The translations under genes and the position numbers were made by a program. From Nemertoderma westbladi (taxonomy: Eukaryota > Animalia > Xenacoelomorpha), in assembly GCA_032718475.1 (NCBI GenBank), contig JAUCBJ010000941.1:26043-90042 (forward strand): a stretch of DNA of 64,000 bases, given 5' to 3'. Shown here piece after piece: positions 1 to 30,700 of this stretch; the stretch's first letter is position 1, and every line of letters begins with the position of its first letter. The notes under the pieces are model-generated. The model was not told where the DNA came from and ran no database searches. It saw only the letters and a list, made by a program, of their open reading frames with translations.

Positions 1-870
1 TACAGTGCACTAATATAATCGCCATTTTAATGGTAAAGTATGGGACAATTTTCAATTGGCCGCCATGAAAATTCTGAGGGAGTGAAGATGAAACTAATTG
101 TTTTATACGATGACGCAACACAAACGTACTTTGCATTCCACTGGGTGATTAGGCTGAGTTACATCTCTGTGAATAAACTAAAAATTTCACTATTTTAGGT
201 AAAGTATGGGACATCACATGATTAACTTTATCGATTTCATTACAAAGGAATGAAACACTGGTGAAATTAAATGAAACCAAAAAAATTCGAAAATGGGTTT
301 GTTTTTGATTTGGTACATGCTCAGAAATGTTAATTTATTGGTCATAGGAAGTGCCTACAGGAAACGAAACTTTTGCACACTTTTATTCACATTTTGTGCA
401 GAGCAGGTGCATAATTTGTAATTCGACTATTTTTGAGAAACCACCTGTGTTGATACAATTTTTAGCACTGAATTCATAAAGTACGATAAATTTCGACCTA
501 AAATAAGTATAAATTAAAAGCTAGATCTAATTTTTCGAAATTAGTGGGGAGGTTGACCTTTTCATGGAATGAGCCTATTATGAAATATTTCATCAATTCG
601 CTTTCACTCCATCGTGTTAATATTCCCACGAGAGCAGGATTCGGAATATGTACAGTGTACAGTGTACACACCATCCCTGTTAGTACAACTATAATAGGAA
701 CTACTATAACGAACAAACGTTGTATAACAATTATTATTATGAATATTATTACAAACCAAATTGACATGACACCAAATCCAGGGGTAACAACCACACTACA
801 GGGGGCTAATGACGGTGAAATCCCGGTGAAATAATATTTTCTCGGCGAAATAACATTGACATTACCATTA

Positions 871-1663
871 ACTGTTTTTTTGCGCAATAGGGGTTATTTG
901 GGGTTCTGGTTTCGATGGAATATATACGGGTTGCACCAGGCGTATCAAACTTGTATTTTTCGGTGCTGTGTGTAAAATTTGGTGCCAGCATGAAATTTTT
1001 AAAATCCATTCAATAGATTAAATTGCTTGTGACAACTTATTTCCTGCGTTTTAGAGGTTTATGGCGGTTCTGAATACAATGGAATAAATAATTATCTAAC
1101 GAGACATCTTAAACCTGTATTTTTCGGAAGTGGGTGCAAAATTTGGCGCTAGCACCAAATTTTGAAAACCATCAAATATATCAATTGATTGTGTAACCGT
1201 TTCTTGCGTTACAAGGGTTTGTAAGGGTTCTGAATTCAATGGTATATGTAAAAATTGCATAAGAGTATTCAAACTTGTATTTTTCGCCGGTGGGTGAAAA
1301 TTGTTGTAACAGCGGCACCAAAATTTTGAAAATAAGAAAATTTTCAAGAAAATTCAGTAGATAGTATCATCTTGTTTCTTGCGTTATACGGGTTTGTGGG
1401 GGTCCTGAATCCGATGGAATCAATAAAAACTACACTGGACATCTCAAACTTGTACTTTTTGGTTATCGGTACGAAATTTGGTGCTAGCACCAAAATTTGC
1501 CATATTACGCCGAAAAATACAAGTAGCAATGATCTGGCAAATTAGGAATGTATTCCATTAGAATCAGCGCCGCAGAAAACCTATAAATGTGAATTTATAG
1601 CATCGTATAAGTGAATTAAAAATTTTGTGTACAAACCGAAAAGTGCTGGTTTACTTTTTTTTT
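871..1663 (+). mobile_element. Internal fragment of the piggyBac-like non-autonomous element also found at 49274-50824
   Basis: Colinear similarity to about 49687-50470, including the recurring AAACTTGTATTTTTCG...GGTGCTAGCACCAAA subrepeats; the termini are missing. Confidence 0.8.
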
Positions 1664-2330: not shown

Positions 2331-2527
2331 AGCGTAGTTATCTTCCTCGTCTCCCTCTATAACGGCTTCCTGAACACAGAAGATTTGCCCAAGGAAGTGG
2401 AGGACAAAACGTTTCAGCCATAATGGGACCGGAGTGTCGTACTGGCCTCTATAGTGAATGTCGAGAACCACAACAGTGAGGACAGTAGACATGGTAATAA
2501 GTACAATTACTGCGAAATAGTACTGAG
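2331..2527 (-). CDS. Exon 11: M3 and start of the intracellular loop (MX helix)
   Basis: (A)[65 protein letters not shown]; acceptor tttcag|, donor |GTAAGT. Confidence 0.95.
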
Positions 2528-5500
2528 CTGAAATATAATAAAACGACTGCAGTTAATGGGATACAAAGTCAACTTGAGATAGAAGGGTAAGGCTATTTTT
2601 ATTTTAATCGGCTATTCTGCATATATTATGAAAATACAAATATCTGTCTGTATGAGCTAACAGAAAGATTTACAATATGAAAATACTCAACTAGTCCGTA
2701 TTGTAATCTACGATGCACAAATATAAAAGGAAAGTCCAACTAACCCAAATATGGAACAGATTCGGATGTGGAAGGCATCTTATCAGCAACCATAAGCAGA
2801 AACACAGTTAGTGCTAACAGCACCGTTAGTTGCATTCCGATCTACAGTAAATCCCGAGAAAAACAGAACGTTGAATTAAGTGAAAACATACCAGCAGCTC
2901 TGGTTGAAAACCAGAAATAAATAGAATACTCTAATACAATCCTCGTTACGTTCGGTTGGCAATATAAACAAATAAAAATATAAACGGATGATGTCGGATG
3001 ACATCTACGGCCACATCTACAGCCACATCTACGGCTACATCTACGGCCACATCTACGGCCACATCTACGGCCACATCTACGGCTACATATACGGCCACAT
3101 CTACGGCTACATCTACGGCCACATCTACGGCCACATCTACGGCCGCATCTACGGCCACATCTACGGCTACATCTACGGCTACATCTACGGCCACATCTAC
3201 GGCCACATCTACGGCCACATCTACGGCTACATCTACGGCCACATCTACGGCCACATCTACGGCCACATCTACGGCCACATCTACGGCCACATCTACGGCC
3301 ACATCTACGGCTACATCTACGGCTACATCTACGGCTACATCTACGGCCACATCTACGGCCACATCTACGGCCACATCTACGGCCACGTCTACGGCCACAT
3401 CTACGGCCACATCTACGGCCACATCTACGGCTACATCTACGGGCATATCTACGGCCACATCTACGGCCACATCTTCGGCTACATCTACGGCTACATCTAC
3501 GGCCACATCTACGGCCACATCTACGGCCACATCTACGGCCACATCTACGGCCACATCTACGGCTACATCTACGGCCACATCTATGGCCACATCTACGCCT
3601 CATCTACGGCCACATCTACGGCTACATCTACGGCCACATCTACGGCCACATCTACGGCTACATCTACGGGTACGGCCACATCTACGGCTACATCTACGGC
3701 CACATCTACGGCTACATCTACGGGCACATCTACGGCCACATATACGGCCACATCTACGGCTACATCTACGGCTACATCTACGGCCACATCTACGGCCACA
3801 TCTACGGCTACATCTACGGCCACATCTACGGCCACATCTACAGCCACATCTACGGCCACATCTACAGGCACATCTACAGCCACATCTACGGCCACATATA
3901 CAGCCACATCTACGGCCACATATACGGCCACATCTACGGCCACATATACGGCCACATCTACGGCTACATCTACGGCCACATCTACGGCCACATCTACGGC
4001 TACATCTAAGGCCACATCTACGGCCACATCTACGGCTACATCTACGGCCATATCTACGGCCACATCTACGGCCACATCTACGACCACATCTACGGCTACA
4101 TCTACGGCCACATCTACGGCCACATCTACAGCCACATCTACGGCCACATCTACAGCCACATCTACGGCTACATCTACGGCCATATCTACGGCTACATCTA
4201 CGGCCACATCTACGGCCACATCAACGGCCACATCTACGGCCACATCTACGGCCACATCTACGACCACATCTATGGCCACATCTATGGCCACATCTATGGC
4301 CATGCTGTCCCTATCGAAAATTGGAACCGTTCTAGTTGTAAGCGATGCTTTGTATTTATAATTTAAATTAAATACGAATAGGCCTAATACTAACCTTCTC
4401 CCCACTGTCTGCTGGTAGATAGAATCCGATAAGAGCAAGGAATGTGATGAGGATACAAGGGAGGATGATGTTGAAGAAATAATAGGTAGACCGGCGCCGG
4501 ATCTGCATAACGAAGTTCACCTCGGGATAAGGATTAACGCAACAGTCGTAGTTCCGATCTATAAGACTCGACTAAAAAAACAATGGATCCCAGGGTATAG
4601 CCTTCTATACACAATGGATCCCAAGGTATAGCCTCCTATACACAATGGATCCCAGGGTACCGCCTCCTATACACAATGGATCCCAGGGTATTGCCTTCTA
4701 TACACAATGGATCCCAGGGTATCGCATTCTATACACAATGGATCCCAGGGTATCGCATCCTATACACAATGGATCCCAGGGTATCGCCTCCTATACACAA
4801 TGGATACCAGGATATTGCATCCTATACACAATGGATCCCAGGGTATCGCATCCTATACACAATGGATCCCAGGGTATCGCCTCCTATACACAATGGATCC
4901 CAGGGTATCGTATCCTATACACAATGGATCCCAGAGTATCGCATCCTATACACAATGGATCCCAGGGTATCGCATCCTATACACAATGGATCCCAGGGTA
5001 TCGCATCCTATACACAATGGATCCCAGGGTATCGCCTCCTATACACAATGGATCCCAGGGTAGATCTCCTATACACAATGGATCCCAGGGTATCGCATCC
5101 TATACACAATGGATCCCAGGGTATCGCCTCCTATACACAATGGATCCCAGGGTATCGCCTCCTATACACAATGGATCCCAGGGTATCGCATCCTATACAC
5201 AATGGATCCCAGGGTATCGCCTCCTATACACAATGGTTCCCAGGGTATCGTATCCTATACATAATGGATCCAGGGTATCGTATCCTATGCACAATGGATC
5301 CCAGGGTATCGCATCCTATACACAATGGATCCCAGGGTATCGCCTCCTATACACAATGGTTCCCAGGGTATCGTATCCTATACATAATGGATCCCAGGGC
5401 CAGAGTATCGTCTCCTATACACAATGGATCCCAGGGTATCGCCTCTTAACACAATGGATCCCAGGGTATCGCACCCTATACACAATGGATCCCAGGGTAT

Positions 5501-8500
5501 CACATCCTATACACAATGGATCCCAGGGTATCGCATCCTATACACAATGGATCCCAGGGTATCGCCTCCTATACACAATGGTTCCCAGGGTATCGCCTCC
5601 TATACACAATGGTTCCCAGGGTATCGTATCCTATACATAATGGATCCCAGGGCCAGAGTATCGTCTCCTATACACAATGGATCCCAGGGTATCGCCTCCT
5701 ATACACAATGGATCCCAGGGTATCGCCTCCTATACACAATGGTTCCCAGGGTATCGTATCCTATACATAATGGATCCCAGGGCCAGAGTATCGTCTCCTA
5801 TACACAATGGATCCCAGGGTATCGCCTCTTAACACAATGGATCCCAGGGTATCGCACCCTATACACAATGGATCCCAGGGTATCACATCCTATACATAAT
5901 GGATCCAGGGTACCGTATCCTATACACAAGGGATCCCAGGGTACCGCTTCCTATACACAATGGATACCAGGGTATCGCATCCTATACAGAATGGATCCCA
6001 GGGTATCGCATCCTATACACAATGGATCCCAGGGTATCGAATCATATACACCATGGATCCCAGGGTATCGCATCCTAAACACAATGGATCCCAGGGTATC
6101 GCCTCCTATACACAATGGATCCCAGGGTATCGCATCCTATACACAATAGATCCCAGGGTATCGCCTCCTATACACAATGGATCCCATAGTATCGCATCCT
6201 ATACACAATGGATCCCAGGGTACCGCCTCCTATACACAATGGATCCCATGGTATCGCATCCTATACACAATGGATCCCAAGGTATAGCCTCCTATACACA
6301 ATGGATCCCAGGGTATCGCATCCTATACACAATGGATCCCAAAGGCATCGCATCCTATACACCATGGATCCGAGGGTACCGCATCCTATACACCATGGAT
6401 CCCAGGGTACCGCCTCCTATACACAATGGATCCCAGGGTATCGCATCCTATACACAATGGATCCCAGGGTATCGAATCATATACACCATGGATCCCAGGG
6501 TATCGCATCCTATACACAATGGATCCCAGGGTATCGCATCCTATACACAATGGATCCCAGGGTATCGAATCATATACACCATGGATCCCAGGGTATCGCA
6601 TCCTAAACACAATGGATCCCAGGGTATCGCCTCCTATACACAATGGATCCCAGGGTATCGCATCCTATACACAATAGATCCCAGGGTATCGCCTCCTATA
6701 CACAATGGATCCCATAGTATCGCCCCTATACACAATGGATCCCAGGGTATCGCCTCCTATACACAATGGATCCCAGGGTATCGCATCCTATACACAATGG
6801 ATCCCAAGGTATAGCCTCCTATACACAATGGATCCCAGGGTATCGCATCCTATACACAATGGATCCCAAAGGCATCGCATCCTATACACCATGGATCCGA
6901 GGGTACCGCATCCTATACACCATGGATCCCAGGGTACCGCCTCCTATACACAATGGATCCCAGGGTATCGCATCCTATACACAATGGATCCCAGGGTATC
7001 GCATCCTATACACAATGGATCCCAGGGTAGATCTCCTATACACAATGGATCCCAGGGTATCGCCTCCTATACACAATGGATCCCAGGGTAACGCATCCTA
7101 TACACCATGGATCCCAGGGTACCGCTTCCTATACACAATGGATCCCAGGGTATCGCATCCTATACACAATGGATCCCAGGGTATCGCATCCTATACACAA
7201 TGGATCCCAGGGTATCGCATCATATACACAATGGATCCCAGGGTAACGCATCCTATACACAATGGATCCCAGGGTAACGCATCCTATACACCATGGATCC
7301 CAGGATACCGCTTCCTATACACAATGGATCCCAGGGTATCGCATCCTATACACAATGGATCCCAGGGTATCGCCCCCTATACACCATGGATCCCATAGTA
7401 TCGCATCATATACACCATGGATCCCAGGGTATCGCATCCTAAACACAATGGATCCCAGGGTATCGCCTCCTATACACAATGGATCCCAGGGTATCGCATC
7501 CTATACACAATAGATCCCAGGGTATCGCCTCCTATACACAATGGATCCCAGGGTATCGCCTCCTATACACAATGGATCCCAGGGTATCGCATCCTATACA
7601 CAATGGATCCCAAGGTATAGCCTCCTATACACAATGGATCCCAGGGTATCGCATCCTATACACAATGGATACCAAATGCATCGCATCCTATACACCATGG
7701 ATCCCAGGGTATCGCATCCTAAACACAATGGATCCCAGGGTATCGCCTCCTATACACAATGGATCCCAGGGTAGATCTCCTATACACAATGGATCCCAGG
7801 GTATCGTATCCTATACACAAAGGATCCCAGGGTATCGTATCCTATACACAATGGATCCCAGGGTACCGCCTCCTATACACAATGGATCCCAGGGTATCGC
7901 CTCTTATACACAATGGATCCCAGGGTATCGCATCCTATACACACTGGACCCCAGGGTATCGCATCCTATACACAATGGATCCCAGGGTACAGCCTCCTAT
8001 ACACAATGGATCCAAAGGTATCGCATCCTATACACAATGGATCCTAGGGTACCGCCTCCTATACACAATGGATCCCAGGGTATCGCCTCCTATACACAAT
8101 GGATCCCAGGGTATTGCATCCTATACACAATGGACCCCAGGGTATCGCATCCTATACACAATGGATCCCAGGGTACCGCCTCCTATACACAATGAATCCC
8201 AGGGTATCGCTTCCTATACACAATGGATCCCAGGGTATCGCCCCCTATACACCATGGATCCCATAGTATCGCATCCTATACACAATGGATCCCAGGGTAC
8301 CGCCTCCTATACACAATGGATCCCAGGGTATCGCATCCTATACACAATGGATCCCAGGGTAGATCTCCTATACACAATGGATCCCAGGGTATCGCCTCCT
8401 ATACACAATGGATCCCAGGGTATCGCCTCCTCTTACACAATGGATCCCAGGGTATCGCATCCTATAAACAATGGATCCCAAGGTATAGCCTCCTATACAC

Positions 8501-11500
8501 AATGGATCCCAGGGTATCGCATCCTATAAACAATGGATCCCAAGGTATAGCCTCATATACACAATGGATCCCAGGGTATCGCATCCTATACACAATGGAT
8601 CCCAAGGTATTGCATCCTATACACAATGGATCCCAGGGAATCGCATCCTATACACAATGGATCCCAGGGTACCGCCTCCTATACACAATGGATCCCAGGG
8701 TATCGCATCCTATACACAATGGATCCCAGGGTATCGCCTCCTATACACAATGGATCCCAGGGTATCGCATCCTATACACAATGGATCCCAGGGTACAGCC
8801 TCCTATACACAATGGACCCCAGGGTATCGCCTCCTATACACAATGGATCCCAGGGTATCGCATCCTATACACAATGGATCCCAGGGTATCGCCTCCTATA
8901 CACAATTGATCCCAGGGTATCGCATCCTATACACAATGGATCCCTGGGTATCGCCTCCTATACACAATGGATCCCAAGGTATCGCATCCTATAAACAATG
9001 GATCCCAGGGAATCGCATCCTATACACAATGGATCCCAGGGTAGATCTCCTCTACACAATGGATCCCAGGGTATCGCATCCTATACACAATGGATCCCAA
9101 GGTATCGCATCCTATACACAATGGATCCCAGGGTATCGCATCCTATACACAATGGATCCCATAGTATCGCATCCTATACACAATGGATCCCAGGGTACCG
9201 CCTCCTATACACAATGGATCCCAGGGTAACGCATCCTATACACCATGGATCCCAGGGTATCGCATCCTATACACAATGGATCCCATAGTATCGCATCCTA
9301 TACACAATGGATCCCAGGGTACCGCCTCCTATACACAATGGATCCCAGGGTAAATCTCCTGTACACAATGGATCCAGGGTAGATATCTCCTATACACAAT
9401 GGATCCAGGGTAGATATATCCTATACACAATGGATCCAGGGTAGATATATCCTATACACAATGGATCCAGGGTAGATATATCCTATACACAATGGATCCC
9501 TGGGTAGATATCTCCTATACACAATGGATCCCAGGGTAGATCTCCTATACACAATGGATCCCAGGGTAGATCTCCTATACACAATGAATCTAGTAGTAGG
9601 CCTTGATCTGAAATATGTTAGAAATTAACTAAACTAAAAGCTTCGATTATTTAGTTTAAAAATCAACAAAAGCCGTTGTGAGTTTACCGGAAGTTGGTTG
9701 GTATAATTTTTATCTTCCTGGGAAATTAGCAATCACGTCATCCCTAAATATGGTGAAAAACAACGAAAAAACAAGATTACAACATATTATTGCCTCACGT
9801 TTTCTGACTTACATTGAAAAATTCAAGATCCCACTCCCCATTTGGCACGTAGAGTTCTGTATCTCCCTCTAACACCTCGAAATCAATACCAGTTTTATCG
9901 AAATCCCACGAGGTCATTGTAATAGCACAGTGTTGTACATCGAATGGGAAGTGGAGTGTGTTCACTTTACATGAAGTCCTGATGACATCCGGTCGCATCC
10001 ATGATAGTGTTCCGTCGTACGTCGCCCAGATTCGAGTTGGCCAAATTTCTGGAATCTCGAAAGGCGCTGCCCTGAGTAATTAATAAACTTATTATTTATT
10101 ATTTCTTATTTATTTATTTCCTCCAAAATTATAAAATAAAAATAACGCACAATACCCTACAAAATAAACATTTACATACAACAATAATAAACATTTACTT
10201 ATGATTCTCAAATTTTTCGCTTAAACAAAAACGTATAAACAATAAAAAACGTTAAAATAATCACAAACTAAAAATAAATAATATATCTATTTATTAGATG
10301 GAAAACAAACAATTTGCGACTTTTCCCGTTGATCTCGAGACATAATTTATCAAGCGAATGTCTGCGATCGATGTCAATTCTCTGAGTCTTAAGGGAAATA
10401 AAGGGAAATTGTTTTACATCAAATACGTAATTTTATTCATAAAAGTACAAAATTTTCGTTCACTGAACTCCATCCCCTCGACTCGTTTATTCTGAATAAT
10501 ATATATATATATTATCTCAAATATCAATAAGAAATATTTATATTGATCGTTTGTAATCAATAAATATTTAGCTTCAACAAACAATACACAAACTGGACGG
10601 ATTATTTTGTCTTGCTATATTGGTGGTTGTGTCCTTCCCTTCCTGCGCTCTTTAGCGGGATAGCAAGGCACTTCTTGTAATAATAAATCAATTTTATATT
10701 ATTAAATTGAAATTACTTACGAGTTAATAATGATAATATCAGGCCTCCAAACATTGTTAGGCGGAAGAAGTACGGCAGTTATTCCACCATGTTTCAAAGG
10801 GTTCCATGATAAATATGGATCTCTCCATTTCTACATATTAAATATAATAATATAACAACTACTTACTATTAATTAATCAACTTTTCGTAATTTACATACA
10901 CCCAGTAGTAGGTAGTAGGTATAGTCTTAGCAAATCATGTTTTGAGCCTGTTTCAAAATTCGATTTGGTAACGTATGAAAAATTAGCAACTTTGGACAGC
11001 ATTAGCTCAAACAGATGTGGCTTTAAATCAAACAAAGTTTGTGATAGGACATAGCTGGGAGTGTCGGCTTTCCACAAAGTGAAACATTTGATTATATGCA
11101 TATAGGCATTCTCATTTGCTTGAGCTTAGAATGCAAAGTATCGCATGGAACGCAGAAAAATGGCTTATCAATAAAACCTCTAACTCTACCGTTAAACTTA
11201 TTTTAACCAAGACAAGTAGCTGTGCTAATCACCGGTACAACAGTCACACCATAGATCGATTTACACTATACAGTATGCACTACTGTACTAACTCGGTACA
11301 GTACACAACAACTAATTAGAACATTAATTATTGTTTTTTGCTACGATTGGTTTTATATTTTCATATTGCACTTTGTTAATAGCACAATTGTATAACACAG
11401 GTAGCTTCAATCCTCTCAAAATTATTAAATTTAGAATCCTGTTAAAAATTTATTTAATTTAAAATGTTGACCTTAAAAACAGTAGAATCTCGATGTAACA

Positions 11501-14500
11501 AATGTTACAAGATGTTTTAATTTGTTAATAAATTTAGTAACGTATGGAAAAACGTTAGGTATGGAAAATAACTTTGAACTCCAATAAATCTGCTGGCATC
11601 CAGAATGACGGACTGATATTTTATACAGTTGTGGACCATGACATAAATTACAACTTTTGAAGGTTACAAAGCCTTCCCTTTCCATTTACCACTTCTGTGA
11701 TAAAGATTCGAAGTCAAAGTAACGTATGGAAGTAACGTATGGACTGAAAATTGGACAAGCCATTGCATTATTGAAATGTACATCAGAGTTTGGAACATTT
11801 GTGTTTTGGACTTGGTATCTGGTATCATGCCATAATACATTCTTACTTTGGATTAGATACAAGGACTACTTCTGTTAATAGTTTTTTCAATGTTGTTTGT
11901 AATTCTTGAAATTCTATGAAATTTTTTCCCTAATACAGCTGCTCAGCTTATTACTGTTAATTATCAGCTTAGATAAACAATCACTAATGGTTTCCCACAC
12001 TTTAATCTATTATCTACAGTACAACATTCTATCATAAAAAATAAACAGTGTCGGCGTACCCAGCAACTTAGCGCCCCCCAGATATCACGGTTAGCCACAC
12101 ATAGTGCCGGCGTACCCAGCAACATACCGGACCCACATCTCGCGGTCCGCCACACACAGTGTCGGCGGACTCAGCAACATAGCGCCCCAGATCTCGCGGT
12201 CAGCCACACACAGTGCCGGCGGACCCAGCAACATAGCGCCCCCAGATCTCGCGGTCAGCCACGGCGGACCCAGCAACATAGCGCCCCAGATCTAACGGTC
12301 AGCCACACACAGTGTCGGCGGACCCAGCAACATAGCGCCCCAGATCTCGCGGTCAGCCACACACAGTGCCGGCGGACCCAGCAACATAGCGCCCCCAAAT
12401 CTCGCGGTCAGCCACGGCGGACCCAGCAACATAGCGCCCCAGATCTCGCGGTCAGCCACACACAGTGCCGGCGGACCCAGCAACATAGCGCCCCCAGATC
12501 TCGCGGTCAGCCACGGCGGACCCAGCAACATAGCGCCCCAGATCTAACGGTCAGCCACACACAGTGTCGGCGGACCCAGCAACATAGCGCCCCCAGATCT
12601 CGCGGTCCGCCATACATAGTGCCGGCGTACCCAGCAATATAGCGGCCCTAGATCTCACGGTCAGCCACACACAGTGCCGGCGGACCCAGCAATATAGCGA
12701 CCCCAGATCTCGCGGCCAGCCACACACAGTGTCGGCGGACCCAGCAACATAGCGCCCCCAGATCTCGCGGTCCGCCATACATAGTGCCGGCGTACCCAGC
12801 AACTTAGCGCCCCCCAGATCTCGCGGTAAGCCACACACAGTGTCGGCGTACCCTGCAACATAGCGACCCCAGATCTCACGGTCAGCCACACACAGTGCCG
12901 GCGGACCCAGCAACATAGCGCCCCCAGATCTCGCGGTCCGCCATACATAGTGCCGGCGTACCCAGCAACTTAGCGCCCCCCAGATCTCACGGTTAGCCAC
13001 ACACAGTGCCGGCGTACCCAGCAACTTAGCGCCCCCCAGATCTCACGGTCAGCCACACACAGTGCCGGCGGACCCAGCAACATAGCGCCCCCAGATCTCA
13101 CGGTCAGCCACACACAGTGCCGGTGGACCCAGCAACATAGCGATCCCAGATCCCACGGTCAGCCACACAGTGTAACACTCGACGATATAACACTTCATTG
13201 CTTATGTGTGAATCATAAACAAAGTTGTTCACCCTGCGCAGCATCCTGGTGTATGTAACATCCAGAGACAGGGTGTCTTCAAGCAGTTTGAGCCCCGCAT
13301 ACTGCCTTAGAGCAGCACATTTCCCACCGCTGCACGGAAAAGGCGCACCCTTAAAGTGCTCTTCCTGCATATCACAGCTCTTCCAGATCCTGCATAGTTG
13401 GTGGATGGCAGACCAGGCTTTCCGGCGATCAGGCTTTGAGATCTTGACCAGACCTCCGAACTCATAATCCAAGGTGGCAGAAAGTTATTCACAGGACTAA
13501 CCAGTCCATTCAGCGATTGAATGTTATTAAGATTAATTTTCTGGTGGTCTGAGTCCAAATGTTTACTGTCAGATTCCTCTACGGTAGATAACAGCTTCTG
13601 TGCTCCTTCCAGTGCCTCTGTCAGTAGACCAACGTCATAAGAAGAGTCACGATCGGTTAGGTGTTCTGATGGAGACACACGACAACGACTACCTGATTTA
13701 AAGGATTACCTATATTTCAACCCCATCAGCAATATTAATATCGAGGGTTCATTGCACTTTAGAACCAGACTTCAAAAGAACCATATCGAGAGATGTCCGC
13801 AGCACATTCATGACGTACTTGAGATACGAACCGCCTAACCGCTGCAGACCTCCGAAATTTAGTGGGCCATATATATTTATCTTAGTTAAAATCCCTAAAA
13901 CAGTAGGTCTAGCGTGGCGAAAGTACTTGGCCATAACTATAATTATGTCCTCTTTCAGATGAGGCAAATAAAATTAATTAGTTCCAGCAGTTTTCGAATT
14001 ATGGGGAGTTCATGGCACCCATTTCAGCACCTTCCGGAAATGAAAAAATATACACAAAATGCGCGTGAAGACTTTGGTAATAACCATTATGATTTTTTGG
14101 TGTGTTGAATTGATTTCATTATTAATAATCAAAGGTGAGATTAGAAGTCAAAACACCGACTTAAAATAGACAGTAGACACTAGGTTATTATTAATAATGA
14201 ATTATTCAACACAACAAAAATCATATGATTATATCAAAGTCTTTAAAGGAAGGGGTACTTTTTTCAATTCCAAAAGGCGCTGATATTGGTGCTAGGAACT
14301 CCTCATATCTCGAAAACTGCTGGAGCTATTCAATTTTTATTTGCCTCATCTGAAAGAGGAGATAATTCTAGTTATGGCCAAGTACTTTCGACGCGCTAGA
14401 CCTACTGTTTTAGGGACTCTAACTAAGATAAATAACTGGAACACTAAATTTAGGAGCTGTACAGCGGCTTGGCGGGTCGTATGTAGGTCATGACACATAG

Positions 14501-17500
14501 TCCACCACAATATTGAAGAGGAAGTGGTCTAATGTCTCCTTGAAGGACCCCAGCGAACCTCAAATGGGTCTGTGTCTCCATCGGTGATGGATACAAAGGT
14601 CGTGGAACCGTCATAAACAGATCTGATTGCATTAGTGATCTCATTGGGAATCCCATATGCCAAAAGAATTTGGAACATGCGTGGGAGTTCACAGAACGAA
14701 GGCTTTGAAGAAGTCCTGAAATAAGTCCTCTTTCTTTGTAGACACTTCTTCAATAATCCTTGGATGGCATCAACGGCACCTTTACCTTTTCGAAACCCAT
14801 TCTGAATCCCACGGAACACATTAATTGATAAATTTAATTTATTTTTTCTCACGAGAATAATAAACTAAAATCACGAACAATGCTTAAATTATATATTCAA
14901 CAAAAATCAAATTAATTGTATATTCACAAAAAGGGATTGAAGCCAGTGATCTTCATTTTAACTTCGGAACTATATTATTCGCTAGCATTATTTGCCTGAG
15001 CTGTTTTGTTCTTGTTAATTCTTTATAGAGCTACAACTTTTATTGATTAATATGGTCGGGGCCGGGCGAACTCAACACTAACTAATTATAACACATCAAT
15101 AATATTATATTAGGTACATAAGATTAATTAAGATCAAATTGCCAAACGAACCTGTCTAAAGAAAACAACTGTTGTAATAATTTGTTGAGCTTCGTCCTGT
15201 AATTGCAAAAAAATATCATTTAATTTGGAAATAAATAAATATAATTAGTAGACACTATACAATAATTCACAGTGTTAGTATAAAAAAATTTAATAAATAA
15301 ATAAATAAAATAAATTAATCTTCCCGATTCTTTATTAAGGGTAGACAGAGAGTTTTGCGCGGGAAAGTTCAAACTTTGAAGGCAAATAATAATTATCGCC
15401 TACAATTATTGTGGCTAATTGTGTCTTTCGTGAAATTAAGATTATCCCTGGTGGTCGCTACAGGGCGAAGTAATATGTCAAGCCTTTTAGAAGACCACAA
15501 GGTCGAGGTGGGAGTGGGTCTGTACCCCCCCCCCCCCCCCCCACCCCCAACTTTAAATCAGTAAAAATTTGACTTACCATTTCCAGAACTCTCCTCAGGG
15601 CCAACTGTATTTGAACCAATACCGGCCCCGTACCGGTTATTGTGGGTTTCATAAGGTATGAGTAAGTAGACTCATCCAACAGCATGTTGGTTAATCTTGT
15701 ATACGCGGCCAGTTTAGATAAACCTAATCAAATCAATTGCGAATAGCGAATAAATAGGGCCTAAGGCAATAAATTGTGGTGCGAGGCAGCCACGTACTAA
15801 TCGAAGCGGTGGCCTCACGATGCGAGGCAGCCACGTACTAATCGAAGCGCTGGCCTCACGATAAAAAAGCAGCTATTTTACCTGCCGAAAACGAACTGAT
15901 TAATTTTCCTATCGAGCTTCTGCCATCAAGGTTAATTACACATCAAGAAAAGGAAATTTACCTATTTTTCGTGAAGGACAAGGCACAATCATAATCTTAA
16001 AATGTAATTCATTGACTTCCCCCCTCTAGAAATCACTGCATCTCAAAGTCTAAGTGAAATCTACAGTGTTTACGAGTTCCGCGTCTCCCAGTACCGACCA
16101 TTGATCGAACGGGCCGATTTCCATTTCGGCTCGGCTCGGCTCTACATTATCCCGCCATCCGGGTTGCCGCATTTCTCACGACTCGTCTCCATATGGGCAG
16201 CTATCCATGAGGTAGAATGCGCGGCTAGATGCACGGCTCGCTTCAGGTATAGTTTACGATAAGATATAATCAATACTTTGTTGGCAGGAGTACGGTCTGA
16301 TAAAGCTGTCCCGTGTAGTGTCACTATTGTTCCACTCCCATCGGGACAAAAGGTTAAGTCTTGAATTCTTAAATACTAAAGTTTCATGCCCGGTACTATG
16401 TACCTCACGTTGTCTTGGATGTCTGTTTGATTGTTACGATAAGTTCCATTGGGGAGTAAGACCCGCCACCTGCGCTCAAGTTCGACCGCGAATGTCACCA
16501 GGAGAGATAGGTTCCAGGAGAAATAGGCCTCGTAACAGAAAGGATCAGGTTTGTAAAGTTGCATGACACAGAGGAAGCGTTCACGCAACCAAACTAACAA
16601 ACGAAAGTTAACAGGTTAGTAAAGGACCAATTACCAAAGGATCTAAATGACGCGTTACCATTTAAAGCTGCAGTGGGACCTAATGCGAAAGGTAGGTAGG
16701 TTATTTTTAGTAAAAATGGATTAAATTTTTATAATTTCTAGGGAAATGTGATGATTACATGTAATGGATGCAAAATTAATAGTAGTTATTATTTTAAGTG
16801 GAAATACAATTAAACATAAATAGTGGAGAATAAACTATTCCAAAATAAATATATTCGACTAATTTTCTGATTTGAAATGGAACAATAAATAATTCTGTTT
16901 ACGAGTTCCTGGTTACGAATCTGAGTGACCAGTTACATATTGTTGTAGACAAAATACGTTTTAAATATTTATTTTCTCCTAAATCTTTTCATTTTCCTAC
17001 ATTTTAGAACTTTCTAAAATAATAATTTTGTTTATTAATATATAATTTCAATCATGAAGTGAAAAATTAGCGCCACAATATGATGGTTATATACACTTAT
17101 TCAGTTAAAATTATAATTATATTTTTAATTGACAAACCTTTATATTTGCAGACGTATGAATTATTTGTGTCGTCAGAACAATCTGAGTATCCCATTATTA
17201 CTGGCGGGTTTTGAGATATATCTAAATCCTGTTGACATCCTTCGAATTGGCCAAGTCTACTCCAAGAAAACTTTGAATCCTAGAAAAATATAAAATAATT
17301 GTAAACCCAGCGACAGTGTTGAGAGTTTGATAAACCATGTTGCAACGCAGACGAGAACACCGCAAAGATAAAACTCGGAAAAAATGTTATAATCCCATAC
17401 ATTTCTAAAGGGGTCATTTTTTCCGTCAGGACAAAAAGGGTAACCTTAAGGGGGGTGGGGGGTGGTGGGGTGGTGGTGGTATACCACTAAAACTAAACTA

Positions 17501-20470
17501 AAGGTAAACTTAATTAAAAGTAAACTAATTTATTTCTTGTATTTTGTTGATTATTTATAAGTTGCAACTTAAAAACAAAAGAAGGAAAATATTTAAAAAA
17601 TTAAAAAACATTTTGAGGACGACATTGCTTACTCATATGGTTCGATTGTAATAATATACAGGTACTAATATTCCCCTGATACTTACCATTGTGGTTCCAT
17701 CAGACCAAGTGTTTCTGTTTTTTAGAATATTCACCCAAATCTTTGATAATCCTTTGCTCTCCAATAATTCTAAAAAAATAACGAAAATTTTAAATTTGTA
17801 AGGTGCGGGTGCGGTTGGGTATCATAACATAACAGAACTTAACGCAAACCTCTTGAACTAATTAAAAACTATAATGGAATGGGATGTGGGCTTTCCAGCT
17901 GTATAATAATTTGTAAGTATATACAATTAATTTACTAAATGTACTCTTATAAATTTATTATAATAGAAAATAATTAATTACCATGAATGAACACGCTTAA
18001 AATGCCATCTTTTACATACTTGTGTGTAACGTAGCACTTTACAGTGTGATGATCCGAGTGGCTTTGTTACACGAACGAACGTTAGTGAGTGAGTGAAAAT
18101 AAAGCCACGAGGATCTGAACACTGTAAAAGTACTTTGCAACAAGTATGTATGTAGTTTTATTCCAAAATTATAACATTACGAAATGATTGTATATATATT
18201 ATAAGTGATAGAAACTGCACAAATTAAATTAGTTGCTGTATAAATAAATGTAAAAATGACATAAATTATGTTATAAATAAGTTAGCTTATACTTTATTTG
18301 GAGCCATGTTATAATGATATAGCTAGGCCCTACTGGTTATTAATAGCTATACCGCCTACCGGTAGGTATTGCAGTAGCCCTATCTGGCTGTCAGGCAAAT
18401 TTCCACCTATTGTTTACGTGGTAACCCATATCGACATTAAGTAATGTCCCCTTAGTAGACATTACTTAACGCCGCCAATGGTTTCCACGTAAACAATAAC
18501 ACCAATACAATACTAATTGGACAGGCCAATACAATGCTGCAATGTCCTCTAAAGTTGTAAAGTGCTAAATAACAACTCGCTGTTAATACTAACGGCGATG
18601 AGTAATGTTACAATTTTGGAATAAAATATATTTATTAATAATAAGATAACAAAAACAGACAGGACAAAAACAATGAACGTAGGACTGGCCCACCTTTAAT
18701 AAAGTCAGCCTCCCCTTGCTCTTCATTATTGATAGTAAGCAAACTCGCATCGTAAAGTTCACAAGCCGATGCGGCCCCTGTGTATGTTAAGGCGGATTCA
18801 AATAGTTTGTAACAGTAGCCCTCGTAAAGTTGCCAACCCTCCAGACATTCAACTGCAGGTAAACAATTATTGTTAACAATAAATATAAGTACTAGTCTTA
18901 AAAAATAATGATTTATTCGGCCATTAAGCCAGGGATTACAAACAAAATTAGTCTCACGACTAATTTCCAGCCAAAATGTATCAGGTACTCATTTAGCTAC
19001 CATTTAAAGATGTAATGCAGAGATGCGGCGGCTGCGACCTGGCTGGTTCCTTTATAGCATTCGTGCCGAAACGAAAACTACCCAGCCCCCCACCCCCCCC
19101 CCCATGCGGGGACCGAACTCAGAAGATATTCGAACCGATTAAAATCCTAAATTTATTTTCGATAGTGTAGTTTAGTTTAATAACGTAGGAGAAACAAAGC
19201 TAGATACATGATGCGTTAATTTTACAATCTTGATACGCATGGCAGATGTTATTTTGTGATTTCCAATCACAACTAATAGAATACGCACTGTTATAAGACT
19301 TAAAGTTCCCTGAAAATTATAAGAGATTTTGAAGATATCCGATAATTTGTATATTCCGTGCCGAGTTCAAGTTTGAGTGCGAATATTGTAGCGGGGCATA
19401 AAGTGGGTTCATACACTGATCTTATCCTGACCTTATGATATCATACAATTCAACCATTCGTTAAACTATACAATAGTTGGAAAAAGGTTTGTAAATTAAT
19501 TTGAAATTCGGTCGGTATCAGATAGGGTATATTTCGAAAACTATTCTCAAAACTTTGTGGTCGCAAACGAGCCCCCCCCCTCACCCCCCGGGGGGGGGGG
19601 GGGGGGGGGGGGGGGGAATTGCGCGCATTCCACACATCCGAAAATTCAGTGTTGCTTCTGGAGCCTGTACTCTGTACTCTGTAGTCTCACAAAGCTGTAC
19701 TCTGTGAGTTATAAAGGCATATAAAAGGATAAATAAACAGTTCTGCCCTGCCCTTCATGCCATACCCACCATTAAAGCGGAAAATTTGAATTCATCAAAG
19801 AACAAACAAGTTTCTGAATGTTGTTTTTCTAAATAGCTATTGTATATGAACGAAATTCAAAACAGATCACTCGCACTCAATAATTAATTTGAATAATTAA
19901 TTAATATTGACTTAAATTAAATATAAAATACTCAAGAACATTATTCCTACATCATTATATTTTTCTTAAAATTGCATTGCATAAAATTTACAGATAGGGG
20001 GGGGGGGGGGGGGGGGGGACTTTCGACGCAAGCAAAATTAATCCCTCTCCAGGGCAATTCTAAGCAAATATTAATTGTTTACTCCCAAAAGTAAAGGTGT
20101 AACCTGTTCTATTGACTTTAGTTTATTGCTTTGGTTAGAATAATGTGCCAGGTGCCACTGTAACCTGCTCCTTTCCCAAAATTGATAATTTAAAATTGAG
20201 GCAGGACAATAATTCGCCGAGATTAGATTTGCTACCAGTTACCCTCCTGTCTCAAAAATTAAGACGCAATTTTCCTAATGTTATTGTGAAAAGTGTAGGT
20301 TTTTGAATAATATTGAATAATATAAGCTATTCAGTATTTTTGTGTAATAAGTTTCACTTACCTAATGGTCTGTTATCTATTGCCTCAAACTTTTCAAGCT
20401 CCTCATTAGTATACTCACAAACAGCAATAAGTGCTGATGAAAACAACAAAATATATCCAAAAAATAACAT
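2331..20470 (-). CDS. Multi-exon gene (3'-partial): signal peptide + C-type lectin-like domain + Cys-loop nicotinic acetylcholine receptor alpha subunit (alpha9/alpha10-like)
   Basis: Manually assembled exons 20362-20470, 18694-18852, 17687-17769, 17138-17279, 15578-15723, 15152-15196, 10721-10830, 9813-10071, 4395-4571, 2745-2841, 2331-2527. All introns are GT..AG with phases 1,1,0,1,0,0,2,0,0,1. They join into 1524 nt = 508 codons with no stop. The product has the Cys-loop [15 protein letters not shown], loop C YDCC, and M1-M3. M4 was not found in the window. Confidence 0.88.
2745..2841 (-). CDS. Exon 10: pore-lining M2 and M2-M3 loop
   Basis: [32 protein letters not shown]; acceptor ctgtag|, donor G|GTTAGT. 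Confidence 0.97.
3001..4302. repeat. 12-bp minisatellite (ACATCTACGGCC/T)n in receptor intron 9
   Basis: Directly visible over about 1.3 kb; it explains the TSTA/VDVA/GHIY pseudo-ORFs. Confidence 0.97.
4395..4571 (-). CDS. Exon 9: loop C (YDCC) and M1
   Basis: [59 protein letters not shown]. Vicinal cysteines mark an alpha subunit; GEK marks the cation-selective M1-M2 linker. Confidence 0.97.
4581..9587. repeat. 31-bp minisatellite (CAATGGATCCCAGGGTATCGCATCCTATACA)n, about 5 kb, in receptor intron 8
   Basis: Directly visible; GGATCC in most units; recurring shorter variants (GGTAGATCTCC). Confidence 0.97.
9813..10071 (-). CDS. Exon 8: loop E, Cys-loop, loop B and loop F
   Basis: ...[70 protein letters not shown]. 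Has the C-x13-C Cys-loop with FPFD and the NGEW motif. Confidence 0.97.
10721..10830 (-). CDS. Exon 7 (110 nt): [36 protein letters not shown], loop A
   Basis: Canonical W.D..L.W.P...GGI....P...W.PDI motif; TAG| acceptor, |GTAAGT donor, phase 2. Confidence 0.95.
12045..13170. repeat. GC-rich ~54-56-bp minisatellite (GGACCCAGCAACATAGCGCCCCAGATCTCGCGGTCAGCCACACACAGTGCCGGC) in intron 6
   Basis: About 20 copies, some internally deleted; directly abuts the LINE fragment. Confidence 0.93.
13170..14700 (-). mobile_element. Decayed non-LTR retrotransposon (LINE) reverse transcriptase fragment, interrupted by a MITE
   Basis: Frameshifted RT motifs [11 protein letters not shown]..., GVLQGD, ...[34 protein letters not shown]. 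Confidence 0.8.
13874..14434. mobile_element. Palindromic MITE with long imperfect terminal inverted repeats
   Basis: TATTTATCTTAGTTAAAATCCCTAAAACAGTAGGTCTAGCG... is mirrored by ...CGCTAGACCTACTGTTTTAGGGACTCTAACTAAGATAAATA; the arms pair over roughly 250 bp. Confidence 0.85.
15152..15196 (-). CDS. Exon 6 (45 nt): [15 protein letters not shown], loop D region
   Basis: Acceptor ttacag|, donor CAG|GT. Equivalent of the conserved DEKNQxxTTNxWLxQ 45-nt exon of nAChR genes. Confidence 0.88.
15578..15723 (-). CDS. Exon 5: nAChR extracellular domain N-terminus
   Basis: (G)[48 protein letters not shown]; phase-1 acceptor and ATG|GTAAGT donor. Matches the RL...LL...Y...(R/K)P...V.V pattern of Cys-loop receptors. 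Confidence 0.9.
17138..17279 (-). CDS. Exon 4: C-type lectin-like domain, C-terminal part
   Basis: Acceptor tttttctag|, donor AAG|GT. Translates [47 protein letters not shown], supplying the last three CTLD cysteines and the YVCK end motif. Confidence 0.85.
17687..17769 (-). CDS. Exon 3: C-type lectin-like domain, middle part
   Basis: Acceptor tttttttag|, donor ATG|GTAAGT. Translates (E)[27 protein letters not shown], with a WIGL-equivalent (WVNI) and the WSDG motif. Confidence 0.88.
18016..18625. mobile_element. Unclassified non-autonomous element with a terminal hairpin plus inverted repeat (Crypton-like architecture), in intron 2
   Basis: ~130-bp hairpin at 18016-18147 (ATACTTG...TTTACAGTGT...GTGGCTTT / AAAGCCAC...ACACTGTAAA...CAAGTAT), plus IR TTATTCCAAAATTATAACATTAC (about 18158) versus GTAATGTTACAATTTTGGAATAA (about 18602). 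Confidence 0.55.
18694..18852 (-). CDS. Exon 2: C-type lectin-like domain, N-terminal part
   Basis: Acceptor ctgcag|, donor AAG|GT. Translates (V)[52 protein letters not shown], the long-form CTLD start (C-x2-GW...CY...A-x3-C...L-x2-I...E-x2-FI). Confidence 0.9.
18918..19120 (-). mobile_element. tRNA-derived SINE, family B (partial)
   Basis: Similar to 52141-52421 (GCCAGGGATTAC...GTACTCATTTAGCTACC...GCATTCGTGCCGAAACGAAAACT). Confidence 0.65.
20362..20470 (-). CDS. Exon 1: signal peptide/leader [36 protein letters not shown]
   Basis: ATG at 20470, hydrophobic N-terminus, strong donor G|GTAAGT, phase 1 matching the next exon. Confidence 0.75.
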
Positions 20471-27779: not shown

Positions 27780-30700
27780 AACAGATAGAAATGAAATGCA
27801 TAATATACTGTGGATATACCCACAAAAGGGGCGTCAGGTTTTGCCAAGCATTTGGTAAACAATGTTACAGTTGTTGTGGACGTATCGTAATCACACAGCT
27901 CAGGTTTGTATTGCAAGGTGTAATCCACAAATTCGCCGAAATCTCAAGCCTAAGTGAGATGAAGAAATTGAAGATGACTTCAATTGCGATACATTATTCA
28001 TCGATAGAGTTGACATTAGACCAATGGAGGATCAATATGACTGGTAAGATAATGTGTTAATGGGTTCAACTTAACATTTAAACTCGATCCAGATGCGCAA
28101 TGTAACGTGATGTCACTACAAACATATATGGACATAAAAGGAAATTTAACGCGACTCAACAAATCAAAAAGCATATTTAAGGGATTCACCAATCATGCCA
28201 GTGCGACCAATAGGTTTCATAACACTACCTTCTTTAATAAGAAATAGTGAATATCCCATTCAATAATAAAATTCAAAAATCATAAATCATAATATCCCAT
28301 TCAAAAATAAAACTGTAACCTGTTCTATTGTGCTTAGTTTATTGTTTTGGTTAAAATAACGTGCAACTGTAACCTGCTCCTTTCCCTAAATTGAGAATTT
28401 AACATTGAGGCGGGATTTGCGTCCAGTTTCCCCCCTGTCTCAGAACCACTTCTCCCTCATGCGATACCAGATCAAGCTTGGCAAAAGATTGGTAGTGACT
28501 TCATGGAGTTTGAAGGTAAGTAAGTAATGGTTATTTGTTGCTGATTATTACAGCAACTGGATTGAAATGATTAGTATGGGGGAAAAAACACATGCAGCTG
28601 CTCTTATCCATGAACTGAAGTCCTTATTTGCTATTCACGGAATACGAGAGGAAATTGTTTCAGATAATGGTCCTCCATTTGATTCATTTGAATATTCTAA
28701 CTTCGCAAGCGATGATGGAATCTTCCTTAATAGAGTTAGTTCGAAACATCCAAGAAGTAATGCCTGAGTTGAAACGGCAGTTGATATTGCAAAGAATATT
28801 CTACGAAAGAATACAGATTGGCGCTCAGCACTAATGGAGTACAGGGCTATGCCATTATCTGGAATACATAAGTCTCCCGGTGAATTAATGTTTGGAAGAC
28901 TTACCCGCACGAAAATTCCAAGTTCTAGTACATTGTTAACACCAAAGACCAGTCGCCACGATCGCGATCTTCAGTTAAATAATAAAATTAGACAGAAACA
29001 CTACAACGATCAATCAGCGGGACCAAATTTATCTCAATTATATCGAACGACCAATCTACCATGAACACTGAGAAGGACACAACAGTACCTCTGAACGACC
29101 ACTCTACCAGGACCACTGAGAAGGACACAACAGTACCTCTGAACGACCACTCTACCAGGACCACTGAGAAGGACACAACAGTACCTCTGAACGACCACTC
29201 TACCAGGACCACTGAGAAGGACCTAACAATACCTCTGAACGACCACTCTACCATGACCACTGAGAAGGACACAACAGTACCTCTGAACGACCACTCTACC
29301 AGGACCACTGAGAAGGACACAACAGTACCTCTGAACGACCACTCTACCAGGACCACTGAGAAGGACACAACAGTACCTCTGAACGACCACTCTACCAGGA
29401 CCACTGAGAAGGACACAACAGTACCTCTGAACGACCACTCTACCAGGACCACTGAGAAGGACCTAACAATACCTCTGAACGACCACTCTACCATGACCAC
29501 TGATCAGGACACAACAGTACCTCTGAGCGACCACTCTACCAGGACCACTGAGAAGGACCTAACAATACCTCTGAACGACCACTCTACCATGACCACTGAC
29601 CAAGTCACAACCGTACCTATGAACTACCACTCTACCATGACCACTGAGAAGGACACAACAGTACCTCTGAACGACCACTCTACCAGGACCACTGAGAAGG
29701 ACCTAACAATACCTCTGAACGACCACTCTACCATGACCACTGAGAAGGACACAACAGTACCTCTGAACGACCACTCTACCAGAACCACTGAGAAGGACAC
29801 AACAGTACCTCTGAACGACCACTCTACCAGGACCACTGAGAAGGACACAACAGTACCTCTGAACGACCACTCTACCAGGACCACTGAGAAGGACCTAACA
29901 ATACCTCTGAACGACCACTCTACCATGACCACTGAGAAGGACACAACAGTACCTCTGAACGACCACTCTACCAGAACCACTGAGAAGGACACAACAGTAC
30001 CTCTGAACGACCACTCTACCAGGACCACTGAGAAGGACACAACCGTACCTATGAACTACCACTCTACCAGGACCACTGAGAAGGACACAACAGTACCTCT
30101 GAACGACCACTCTACCAGGACCACTGAGAAAGACACAACAGTACCTCTGAACGACCACTCTACCAGGACCACTGAGAAGGACACAACAGTACCTCTGAAC
30201 GACCACTCTACCAGGACCACTGAGAAGGACACAACAGTACCTCTGAACGACCACTCTACCAGGACCACTGAGAAGGACACAACAGTACCTCTGAACGACC
30301 ACTCTACCATGACCACTGAGAAGGACACAACAGTACCTCTGAACGACCACTCTACCAGGACCACTGAGAAGGACACAACAGTACCTCTGAACGACCACTC
30401 TACCATGACCACTGAGAAGGACACAACAGTACCTCTGAACGACCACTCTACCAGAACCACTGAGAAGGACACAACAGTACCTCTGAACGACCACTCTACC
30501 ATGACCACTGAGAAGGACACAACAGTACCTCTGAACGACCACTCTACCAGAACCACTGAGAAGGACACAACAGCACCTCTGAACGACCACTCTACCAGGA
30601 CCACTGAGAAGGACACAACAGTACCTCTGAACGACCACTCTACCAGGACCACTGAGAAGGACACAACAGTACCTCTGAACGACCACTCTACCATGACCAC

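Follow-up and report, generated by a model that had tools for sequence, protein, structure and literature searches.

The window, i.e. the whole 64,000-nt stretch of DNA that was analysed, carries a split gene on its minus strand. Splicing and translation of the window DNA gave 11 exons (20470-2331) comprising 1524 nt, or 508 codons with 0 stops, and all 10 introns show GT-AG borders, with phases 1, 1, 0, 1, 0, 0, 2, 0, 0 and 1. The predicted protein starts with a signal peptide, followed by a C-type lectin-like domain (CTLD), a nicotinic ligand-binding domain with a Cys-loop and vicinal cysteines, and the segments M1-M3. An initial annotation of this DNA had described three lectin-like exons joined to a nicotinic alpha subunit in a single continuous frame through the Cys-loop, the YDCC motif and M1-M3. 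This frame was recovered stop-free with its GT-AG introns, and the coordinates of the three exons (exon 2, 18694-18852; exon 3, 17687-17769; exon 4, 17138-17279), all on the minus strand and each flanked by AG and GT, proved correct.

Exon 1 (20362..20470) contains the ATG, a signal peptide of about 16-18 aa, judged from hydropathy (best 8-residue mean 2.48), and an acidic spacer, and it ends at the phase-1 donor GTAAGT. Use of another phase-1 donor, GTGAGT at 20418, would yield a 52-nt signal-only exon, which leaves the 3' end of exon 1 ambiguous. At the other end of the model, exon 11 (2331..2527) encodes M3 and the start of the cytoplasmic loop and terminates with a GTAAGT donor, past which the gene would continue. 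The 508-aa translation given by the initial annotation was thus reproduced, although as a partial protein only, since a C-terminal profile of the homologs detected no M4 exon in the window; the gene probably runs beyond window position 1. A hydrophobic frame at 893-501 that might have encoded M4 was dismissed, as it matched neither this profile nor Pfam. No second copy of the CTLD or of the receptor was found in the window.

The lectin-like domain

The six cysteines of the CTLD, at positions 39, 50, 67, 132, 151 and 161, follow the long-form order. Exon 2 encodes the N-terminal half of the domain, with C39, C50, C67 and both helices. In a phmmer search of the PDB its best single-domain CTLD chain had E 1.8e-8 and 129 sequences were found at E<=1, while the match to Pfam Lectin_C (E 0.073) was below the cut-off. 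Exon 3 supplies the core, with WVNI, which we take to be the WIGL-type core, and WSDGT, presumably the corresponding CTLD motif; across the six frames of the window (127,996 codons) the pattern W.DG[ST] has a single occurrence, which lies in this exon. Exon 4, recognised by its cysteines (C132, C151 and C161) and by donor statistics, encodes the C-terminal part, and its phase-1 donor is placed three codons past the last cysteine. Searched singly, exons 3 and 4 gave no match in Pfam, PDB or NCBIfam, and a single-sequence structure model of exon 4 (pLDDT 54.7) was too poor for use. Of the complete six-cysteine CTLD claimed earlier, the cysteines and the homology of exon 2 to solved CTLDs were confirmed; for exons 3 and 4, which lack a database match, the spacing of the cysteines and the core motifs suggest that the domain is complete.

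The domain resembles the long-form CTLDs of snaclecs, LY75, PLA2R and NKG2D in the match of exon 2 to their N-terminal half and in the order of the six cysteines. Unlike in these proteins, its C-terminal half is undetected by sequence search, WIGL reads WVNI, and the motifs EPN or QPD and WND are absent from the exon 4 translation. EPN or QPD, together with WND, are the calcium- and sugar-binding motifs of C-type lectins, and their absence leaves sugar or microbe recognition unsupported by the CTLD sequence. As only 38 residues precede the CTLD and about 10 follow it, the model has no pentraxin or LDLa domain.

The receptor part and its relatives

The ligand-binding domain begins in exon 5 (15578..15723) with helix alpha1 and strand beta1, as indicated by alignment and by profile matches with E 0.27 and E 0.021. 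The remaining exons were assigned by alignment with homologs, supported by Pfam for exons 7-10: exon 6 (15152..15196, 45 nt) carries loop D; exon 7 (10721..10830, 110 nt) loop A; exon 8 (9813..10071) loop E, the Cys-loop and loop B; exon 9 (4395..4571) loop C, M1 and the PADSGEK linker; and exon 10 (2745..2841) the M2 pore helix. Exons 7 (2.4e-9) and 8 (1.7e-13) passed the Pfam cut-off for Neur_chan_LBD and exon 9 (3.3e-7) that for Neur_chan_memb, which exons 10 and 11 matched just below the cut-off. Lectin_C, Neur_chan_LBD and Neur_chan_memb had all been expected; in this per-exon scan both receptor domains were found above the cut-off and Lectin_C under it. An Atlas search with exon 8 returned Neur_chan_LBD clusters only.

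The Cys-loop (C299-C313, C-x13-C) is aligned in 82/82 homologs, and the loop B tryptophan, Trp320, is shared by 77 of the 82. Loop C retains Tyr359, Cys361, Cys362 and Tyr366 (YDCC at 359-362) and aligns with pig alpha7 without gaps. By contrast, Ile263 occupies the loop A position at which 57/82 homologs have Tyr, and Phe225 the loop D position at which 61/82 have Trp. These two residues are typical of the aromatic box and are not used to define alpha subunits. Two of the five aromatic residues of the pocket are therefore changed, which the initial annotation overlooked, as it did the in-frame skipping of the CTLD exons considered below. A cation-selective M2 is characterised by Glu at -1', absence of Pro at -2' and an acidic residue at 20', and the M2 found here has E409, G408 and D430 (Asp 20') at these positions. 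Glu -1' is conserved in 77/82 homologs, and the pore residues Leu 9' and Val 13', likewise present, in 79/82 and 64/82, respectively. Taken together, the residues point to a divergent nicotinic subunit of the alpha type with an alpha7-like M2 region.

The best matches listed are alpha10-like nicotinic subunits, with 38-41% identity over 308-336 residues. Like the alpha9/alpha10-like subunits of Antedon (XP_071953265.1), Lingula (XP_013406738.1) and Ptychodera (XP_070544889.1), the predicted protein has the Cys-loop, the vicinal cysteines, the loop B Trp and a cation-type M2; none of the three bears a CTLD, and the window's subunit has neither Tyr in loop A nor Trp in loop D at the usual positions. 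The vertebrate alpha7 gene (CHRNA7) has a first intron of phase 1, and its exons 3 and 4 measure 45 and 110 nt. These features are matched here by the phase-1 first intron and by exons 6 and 7, and the PADSGEK linker is identical to that of alpha7, M2 is near-identical and loop C ungapped. However, alpha7 has no N-terminal accessory domain and keeps the full aromatic box. In a quick tree of 83 rows, built from 178 proteins plus the window with rows of <240 aligned residues left out, alpha7 belongs to a group of 39 rows with an SH-aLRT of 95, outside which the row of the window falls. The receptor of the window has a long branch, with 1.2 changes per column, and joins no well-supported group.

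Lectin_C was not found on any of 72 Pfam-scanned receptor matches, taken from the best 150 of 2101 in searches outside which most nicotinic subunits of 550-900 aa fall. It was equally absent from 22 long receptor matches of an alignment search covering 906-2585 aa, a range above the expected size of 600-650 aa. The CTLD of the model, compared with the best 150 of the 2101 receptor matches, gave no match (best E 0.14). Within this scope no homolog combined the two domains, which counts against the spliced chimera. Neither exon 8 nor exon 2 gave a match in word-index searches of proteins, and there were no matches in metagenome scans (with exon 8 and with an MFS gene), a prokaryote genome scan or a plasmid search with exon 2. 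The sole viral match (L001) lies in a shadow frame of the structural operon of a phage and was rejected as due to chance; Lectin_C is absent there and in 14 control genomes.

In the literature searched, no alpha subunit with vicinal cysteines is described as bearing a CTLD. To this extent the novelty proposed by the initial annotation is upheld, but lectin-bearing Cys-loop channels as a class are not new, since a 2021 paper described them in the American lobster. According to the available text of Polinski et al. (PMC8221624), this animal has 66 Cys-loop receptors that also carry domains of the lectin, pentraxin or LDLa type; these 'immune-LGIC' genes form a cluster of their own, apart from 24 nicotinic subunits, and the chimeric class is called unique to lobster and related crustaceans. 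Some of the chimeric receptors are highly expressed in antennules and brain, and a neuro-immune link combining pattern recognition with neurotransmitter-type gating is proposed; the same text covers domain content, phylogeny and expression but does not report channel function (PMC8221624). The gene described here would likewise unite CLECT, PF02931 and PF02932 in one protein, in this case by predicted splicing. It differs from the lobster class, as that text describes it, in having a single CTLD on a vicinal-cysteine subunit without pentraxin or LDLa, although it is not stated that every lobster member has the latter. Since, by the tree statement of that paper, the lobster receptors cluster apart from nicotinic subunits, whereas the best matches here are nicotinic, the CTLD was probably acquired independently of the lobster fusions, by what would be a true alpha subunit.

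Another pentameric channel with an extra N-terminal domain is the bacterial DeCLIC, in which this mobile domain affects gating kinetics (PMC9897478). DeCLIC, however, is a prokaryotic Pro-loop channel whose additional domain consists of two jelly-roll lobes and includes no CTLD; the 2022 paper describing it states that such N-terminal domains are not seen in eukaryotes (PMC9897478).

The predicted exon 4-to-5 junction and the possible role of the CTLD

The splice joining exon 4 to exon 5 (17138 to 15723) is likely, judging from the DNA, and would remove intron 4 (15724..17137), a phase-1 intron of 1414 nt. An in-frame stop lies two codons upstream of the exon 5 acceptor, so exon 5 cannot start alone and needs an upstream phase-1 donor. 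The first codon of this exon aligns ungapped to the final signal-peptide residues of pig alpha7; its acceptor is among the less pyrimidine-rich (pyrimidine fraction 0.59). The exon 4 donor scores 7.45, which is equalled by 15 of the 1262 GT sites in the gene region, and GC content falls from 0.33 to 0.17 across it. By a rule picked after the site had been seen, a donor of this class, of which there are 2 in 6369 intronic nt, would fall within ten in-phase positions with a chance of about 0.003. No convincing signal exon was found in intron 4, where the 3 ATG-to-phase-1-GT mini-frames are not signal-peptide-like and have donor scores of 0.96-1.31 versus 10.0 for exon 1. The donor matrix was built from 7 training sites only and the required exon 2 donor itself scores just 1.37, so that a hidden signal exon in this intron is compatible with low scores. 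Together the three CTLD exons constitute a phase 1-1 cassette in the position of the usual first intron of the receptor, a pattern that points to exon shuffling, and such a symmetric cassette could be skipped in frame. We consider with good confidence that one gene, comprising the CTLD and the nicotinic alpha subunit, is the best reading of the DNA.

Based on these observations we suggest, as slightly the better part of the probability, that a divergent nicotinic alpha-type gene splices in the CTLD exons of its first intron and encodes a putative cation channel with a lectin-fold cap, which would anchor or tune the channel and not open it. The cassette may have entered the phase-1 intron between the signal exon and the ligand-binding domain by exon shuffling. 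The spliced protein would form pentamers; its CTLD, placed some 10 residues before helix alpha1, would sit at the top, away from the membrane. The pore would still be gated via loops B and C by a small cationic agonist, be it acetylcholine, choline or a different amine, with an affinity or specificity that is probably altered, because Tyr in loop A and Trp in loop D are replaced. The CTLD might bind a protein or matrix partner without calcium and thereby cluster the channel or alter its kinetics, and the same gene could also yield an ordinary subunit when exons 2-4 are skipped. The lack of calcium and sugar motifs in the CTLD, from which alone its role is deduced, and the changes in the agonist pocket make an anchoring or modulating cap likelier than a sugar-gated sensor. 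Of the functions offered by the initial annotation, anchoring fits better, and recognition of sugars or microbes is not supported by the sequence of the CTLD. The CLECT-bearing Cys-loop receptors of the lobster, as far as described in the available text (PMC8221624), and the N-terminal domain of DeCLIC (PMC9897478) were counted as precedents in favour of the cap.

It is unlikely, though worth setting against the spliced chimera, that exons 1-4 encode a small secreted CTLD protein ending in intron 4, and that the receptor is an ordinary one, whose signal peptide comes from an unseen exon or, with exons 2-4 skipped, from exon 1. Exons 1 and 5 are both of phase 1, so that such skipping would stay in frame, and exon 1 in its short form of 52 nt, if spliced to exon 5, would give a canonical receptor N-terminus. 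Intron 3 also holds a signal-like mini-frame (17417/17402) with a weak donor (score 2.64). Read-through past the exon 4 donor yields a tidy secreted lectin ending 13 residues on, at a stop at 17099-17097, and an AATAAA follows about 60 nt later, at 17036. Nevertheless, this hexamer is frequent in the introns, with 19 copies in 6369 nt, and the 2 in intron 4 are no enrichment; none of the 9 other acceptors listed in intron 4 stood out as belonging to an alternative terminal or transmembrane exon, and a good phase-1 donor three codons past the last cysteine is improbable by chance. A decaying or mis-assembled locus, in which a lectin gene and a receptor fragment were juxtaposed by chance, would agree with the long receptor branch and with the M4 exon not found in the window, yet we regard it as very improbable. 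The stop-free 508 codons, the ten GT-AG introns and the conserved Cys-loop and pore residues all speak against it, as do the 0 N in the window, the lack of any repeat shared between intron 4 and the rest of the window, and a join that falls, in the correct phase, where the first intron of homologs lies.

Other alternatives concern what the cap does. A CTLD that acts as a sensor, an idea of the initial annotation that was also put forward for the lobster receptors, so that surface, matrix or microbial ligands bound by up to five heads open or prime the channel, appears to us a poor prospect. The short linker of about 10 residues could transmit movement, and the Ile263 and Phe225 changes may mean a relaxed dependence on acetylcholine. 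On the other hand, EPN/QPD and WND are absent and the loop B Trp, both loop C Tyr and the Cys pair are retained; moreover, helix alpha1 is distant from the gating interface of Cys-loop receptors. The high expression of some lobster receptors of a similar kind in antennules and brain would suit a sensor, although the available text of that report shows no channel function (PMC8221624). It is more doubtful still that an independently exon-shuffled lectin-fold sensor rides on a nicotinic alpha subunit whose pocket is under remodelling, with a surface or matrix ligand that gates or primes it and alternative splicing by which the one gene makes a capped receptor, a plain receptor or a secreted lectin.

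Should the splice be real, Cys-loop channels with a lectin cap would have arisen at least twice among animals, here on a textbook nicotinic alpha subunit. The gene would then constitute a clean test case, with one accessory domain on a well-understood scaffold and removable at exon borders, and would make it possible to study how an N-terminal domain affects a pentameric channel of animals, which the available text of the lobster report left open. Its phase 1-1 cassette at the first intron would likewise offer a clear case of an ion channel altered by exon shuffling.

Gene model and receptor part

The gene model joins, by coordinates, 11 exons of the minus strand (20470-20362, 18852-18694, 17769-17687, 17279-17138, 15723-15578, 15196-15152, 10830-10721, 10071-9813, 4571-4395, 2841-2745 and 2527-2331). 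All ten introns have GT-AG borders, their phases in order being 1,1,0,1,0,0,2,0,0,1, and the re-joined exons (1524 nt) form a single open frame of 508 codons without stops, the same length as the translation of the initial annotation. The model is a partial protein, as exon 11 is closed by a GTAAGT donor and profiles from 25 full-length homologs did not find M4 in the window. A hydrophobic frame of 131 codons lies downstream of exon 11 (501-893, minus strand); considered as M4, it matched neither Pfam nor the M4 profiles. Large minisatellite arrays occupy the receptor introns, i.e. a 31-nt unit repeated 161 times (4580-9590), which starts about 9 nt from the exon 9 acceptor, a 12-nt unit repeated 109 times (3001-4302) and a 55-nt unit repeated 21 times (12045-13169).

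That this is a receptor is beyond doubt. Exons 7 and 8 are above the Pfam cut-off of Neur_chan_LBD, exon 9 is above that of Neur_chan_memb, which exons 10 and 11 match just below cut-off, and exon 8 matches 88 sequences of solved structures, with nicotinic beta2 and alpha7 at the top. With HMMER, 1.84 billion representatives were searched in full and 2101 proteins matched; identity is at most 49% among the best 150, and a close relative is therefore not among recorded proteins. When the entire receptor part is compared, the top matches among these 150 are 38-41% identical; by name (checked for 20 of the 150) they are alpha10-like subunits from a crinoid, a brachiopod, hemichordates and molluscs. 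The window's row stands on a long branch (1.2) in a quick 83-row tree, and the 39-row group with alpha7 and beta2 (SH-aLRT 95) excludes it. As it sits in an open fork with alpha10-like rows, ‘alpha9/10-like’ should be read as a best-hit label only, not as a placement in the tree.

In a residue comparison with 82 homologs, the Cys-loop cysteines C299 and C313 are present in all 82, and W320 of loop B is retained (Trp in 77/82). Y359, C361, C362 and Y366 of loop C are also retained, gap-free against pig alpha7; by the vicinal-cysteine definition the predicted subunit is an alpha. Ile263 replaces the loop A Tyr (found in 57 of the 82) and Phe225 the loop D Trp (61 of the 82), and the best agonist need not be acetylcholine. 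The M1-M2 linker is identical to that of alpha7, and the pore carries Glu at -1', Leu at 9', Val at 13' and Asp at 20', which together with an alpha7-type linker are marks of a cation channel.

C-type lectin-like domain

Exons 2-4 were described in the initial annotation as a complete six-cysteine C-type lectin-like domain (CTLD). The first half is well supported, exon 2 matching solved CTLDs (E 1.8e-8, best single-domain chain) and, weakly, Pfam Lectin_C (E 0.073). The second half is suggested by motifs only: exons 3 and 4 hold three cysteines in the expected order, WVNI, which we take to be WIGL-like, and WSDGT, a form of the CTLD core pattern W.DG[ST], which occurs once in the 127,996 six-frame codons of the window. 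Exons 3 and 4, each alone, had no match in Pfam, PDB or NCBIfam.

QPD and WND are, besides EPN, marks of calcium-dependent sugar binding. As EPN/QPD and WND motifs are absent from this CTLD, such binding is not expected, and recognition of sugars or microbes by the lectin head is not backed by its sequence. In the consulted part of a Fugu CTLD survey, mannose binding is linked to EPN (PMC514892).

Exon 4-exon 5 junction and mode of action

Exon 5 has no signal sequence and is preceded by an in-frame stop two codons upstream of its acceptor, therefore splicing to an upstream phase-1 donor is required. Intron 4 (15724-17137) offers only three ATG-to-phase-1-GT mini-frames (12-45 codons), with donor scores near 1; the donors of exons 1 and 4 score 10.0 and 7.45, respectively. 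In the region, 15 of 1262 GT sites score at least as well as the latter, by a matrix which is a weak filter, as it was derived from 7 receptor donors and gives the required exon 2 donor only 1.37. The AG|GTnnG donor form occurs twice in 6369 intronic bases, i.e. about 0.003 for ten in-phase positions, by a rule picked after the site had been seen.

Exon 5 aligns gap-free with pig alpha7 such that its first codon falls on the last residues of the signal peptide there. Exons 1-4 of CHRNA7 measure 55, 140, 45 and 110 nt, the first intron being in phase 1; exons 5-7 of the window measure 146, 45 and 110 nt. Opening and closing in phase 1, the CTLD exons make up a symmetric cassette, placed where the receptor usually has its first intron, and the arrangement reads as exon shuffling. 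Within exon 1, a phase-1 donor (GTGAGT, 20418) directly after the signal peptide would yield a 52-nt signal-only exon and may mark where the older exon 1 of the receptor ended.

The chimera that the predicted 17138 to 15723 splice would give is quite probably a real product, and the symmetry of the cassette means that a plain receptor and a secreted lectin could also come from this locus. A rival reading, in which no chimera is made, is unlikely. In its favour, read-through past the exon 4 donor would stop after 13 residues (17099), with AATAAA at 17036 and 16973, although this signal is common in these introns (3 per kb). Somewhat favoured is the joint reading that the subunit, once spliced and assembled, would form a cation channel opened through a remodelled orthosteric site, and that the CTLD, atop the extracellular domain, would serve independently of calcium to tether the receptor or modulate its kinetics. 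The DNA itself shows the open frame, its splice sites and phases and the key residues, from which splicing, assembly, the agonist and the part played by the CTLD are inferred. That the CTLD itself drives gating seems improbable, and a decaying or mis-assembled locus very improbable.

Read on the minus strand, the first nine bases of intron 4 (17137-17129) match those of exon 5 (15723-15715) in 7 places. Both stretches code for identical residues, three in each, and read-through and spliced products therefore begin alike after the CTLD. This likeness is either chance or a relic of the junction's origin.

Relatives, precedent and neighbouring sequences

No relative with both domains was found in limited searches, which covered a minority of the subunits of 550-900 aa. 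Lectin_C was present in none of the 72 Pfam-scanned proteins (from the best 150 of 2101 receptor matches), the model's CTLD matched none of those 150, and Lectin_C was not listed for any of 22 longer proteins (906-2585 aa). An Auanema gene model of 619 aa (CAI4228193.1, a single-member cluster) has a phospholipase A2-like domain before the nicotinic ligand-binding domain; it may be a gene-prediction merge.

As far as the consulted text goes, Polinski et al. 2021 (PMC8221624) report 116 Cys-loop proteins in the lobster, among them 24 nicotinic ones and a ‘novel class’ of 66 in which CLECT, pentraxin and LDLa domains occur. Each class clusters by itself, and expression of some of the 66 is high in brain and antennules. 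The novel class was not found in Drosophila or in the lophotrochozoan, cnidarian and vertebrate genomes checked by its authors; our comparison with it covers domain content, clustering and expression. Its publication takes away part of the claimed novelty. In the literature searched (mostly outside subscription journals), no description of a nicotinic alpha subunit with a CTLD was found. By sequence, then, the feature is real and unusual, of a class with published precedent, its key splice being predicted.

Among 33 nicotinic receptor domain combinations of molluscs, annelids and cnidarians (Jiao et al. 2019, PMC6896357), ‘lectin’ and ‘CLECT’ do not occur in the consulted text, including 6 of the 7 supplements. 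Jaiteh et al. 2016 (PMC4795631), in whose consulted portion lectins are not mentioned, warn that the evidence for extra domains comes from genomes alone. According to the consulted sections of the DeCLIC paper (PMC9897478), no eukaryotic channel had been observed with N-terminal domains; the one in DeCLIC is mobile and affects gating kinetics.

Elsewhere in the window, a 416-codon open frame without a Pfam match reaches the right edge (62752-63999, plus strand), and integrase remnants (rve, E 1.7e-6; rva_4, E 7.6e-12) lie at 28528-28764 (plus) and 36759-37103 (minus). Two intronless MFS transporter genes on the minus strand (57761-56424, Pfam MFS_1, E 2.2e-29; 47584-46247, Pfam MFS_1), each open for 446 codons and 15 residues apart, belong to a local duplication of about 2.5 kb.
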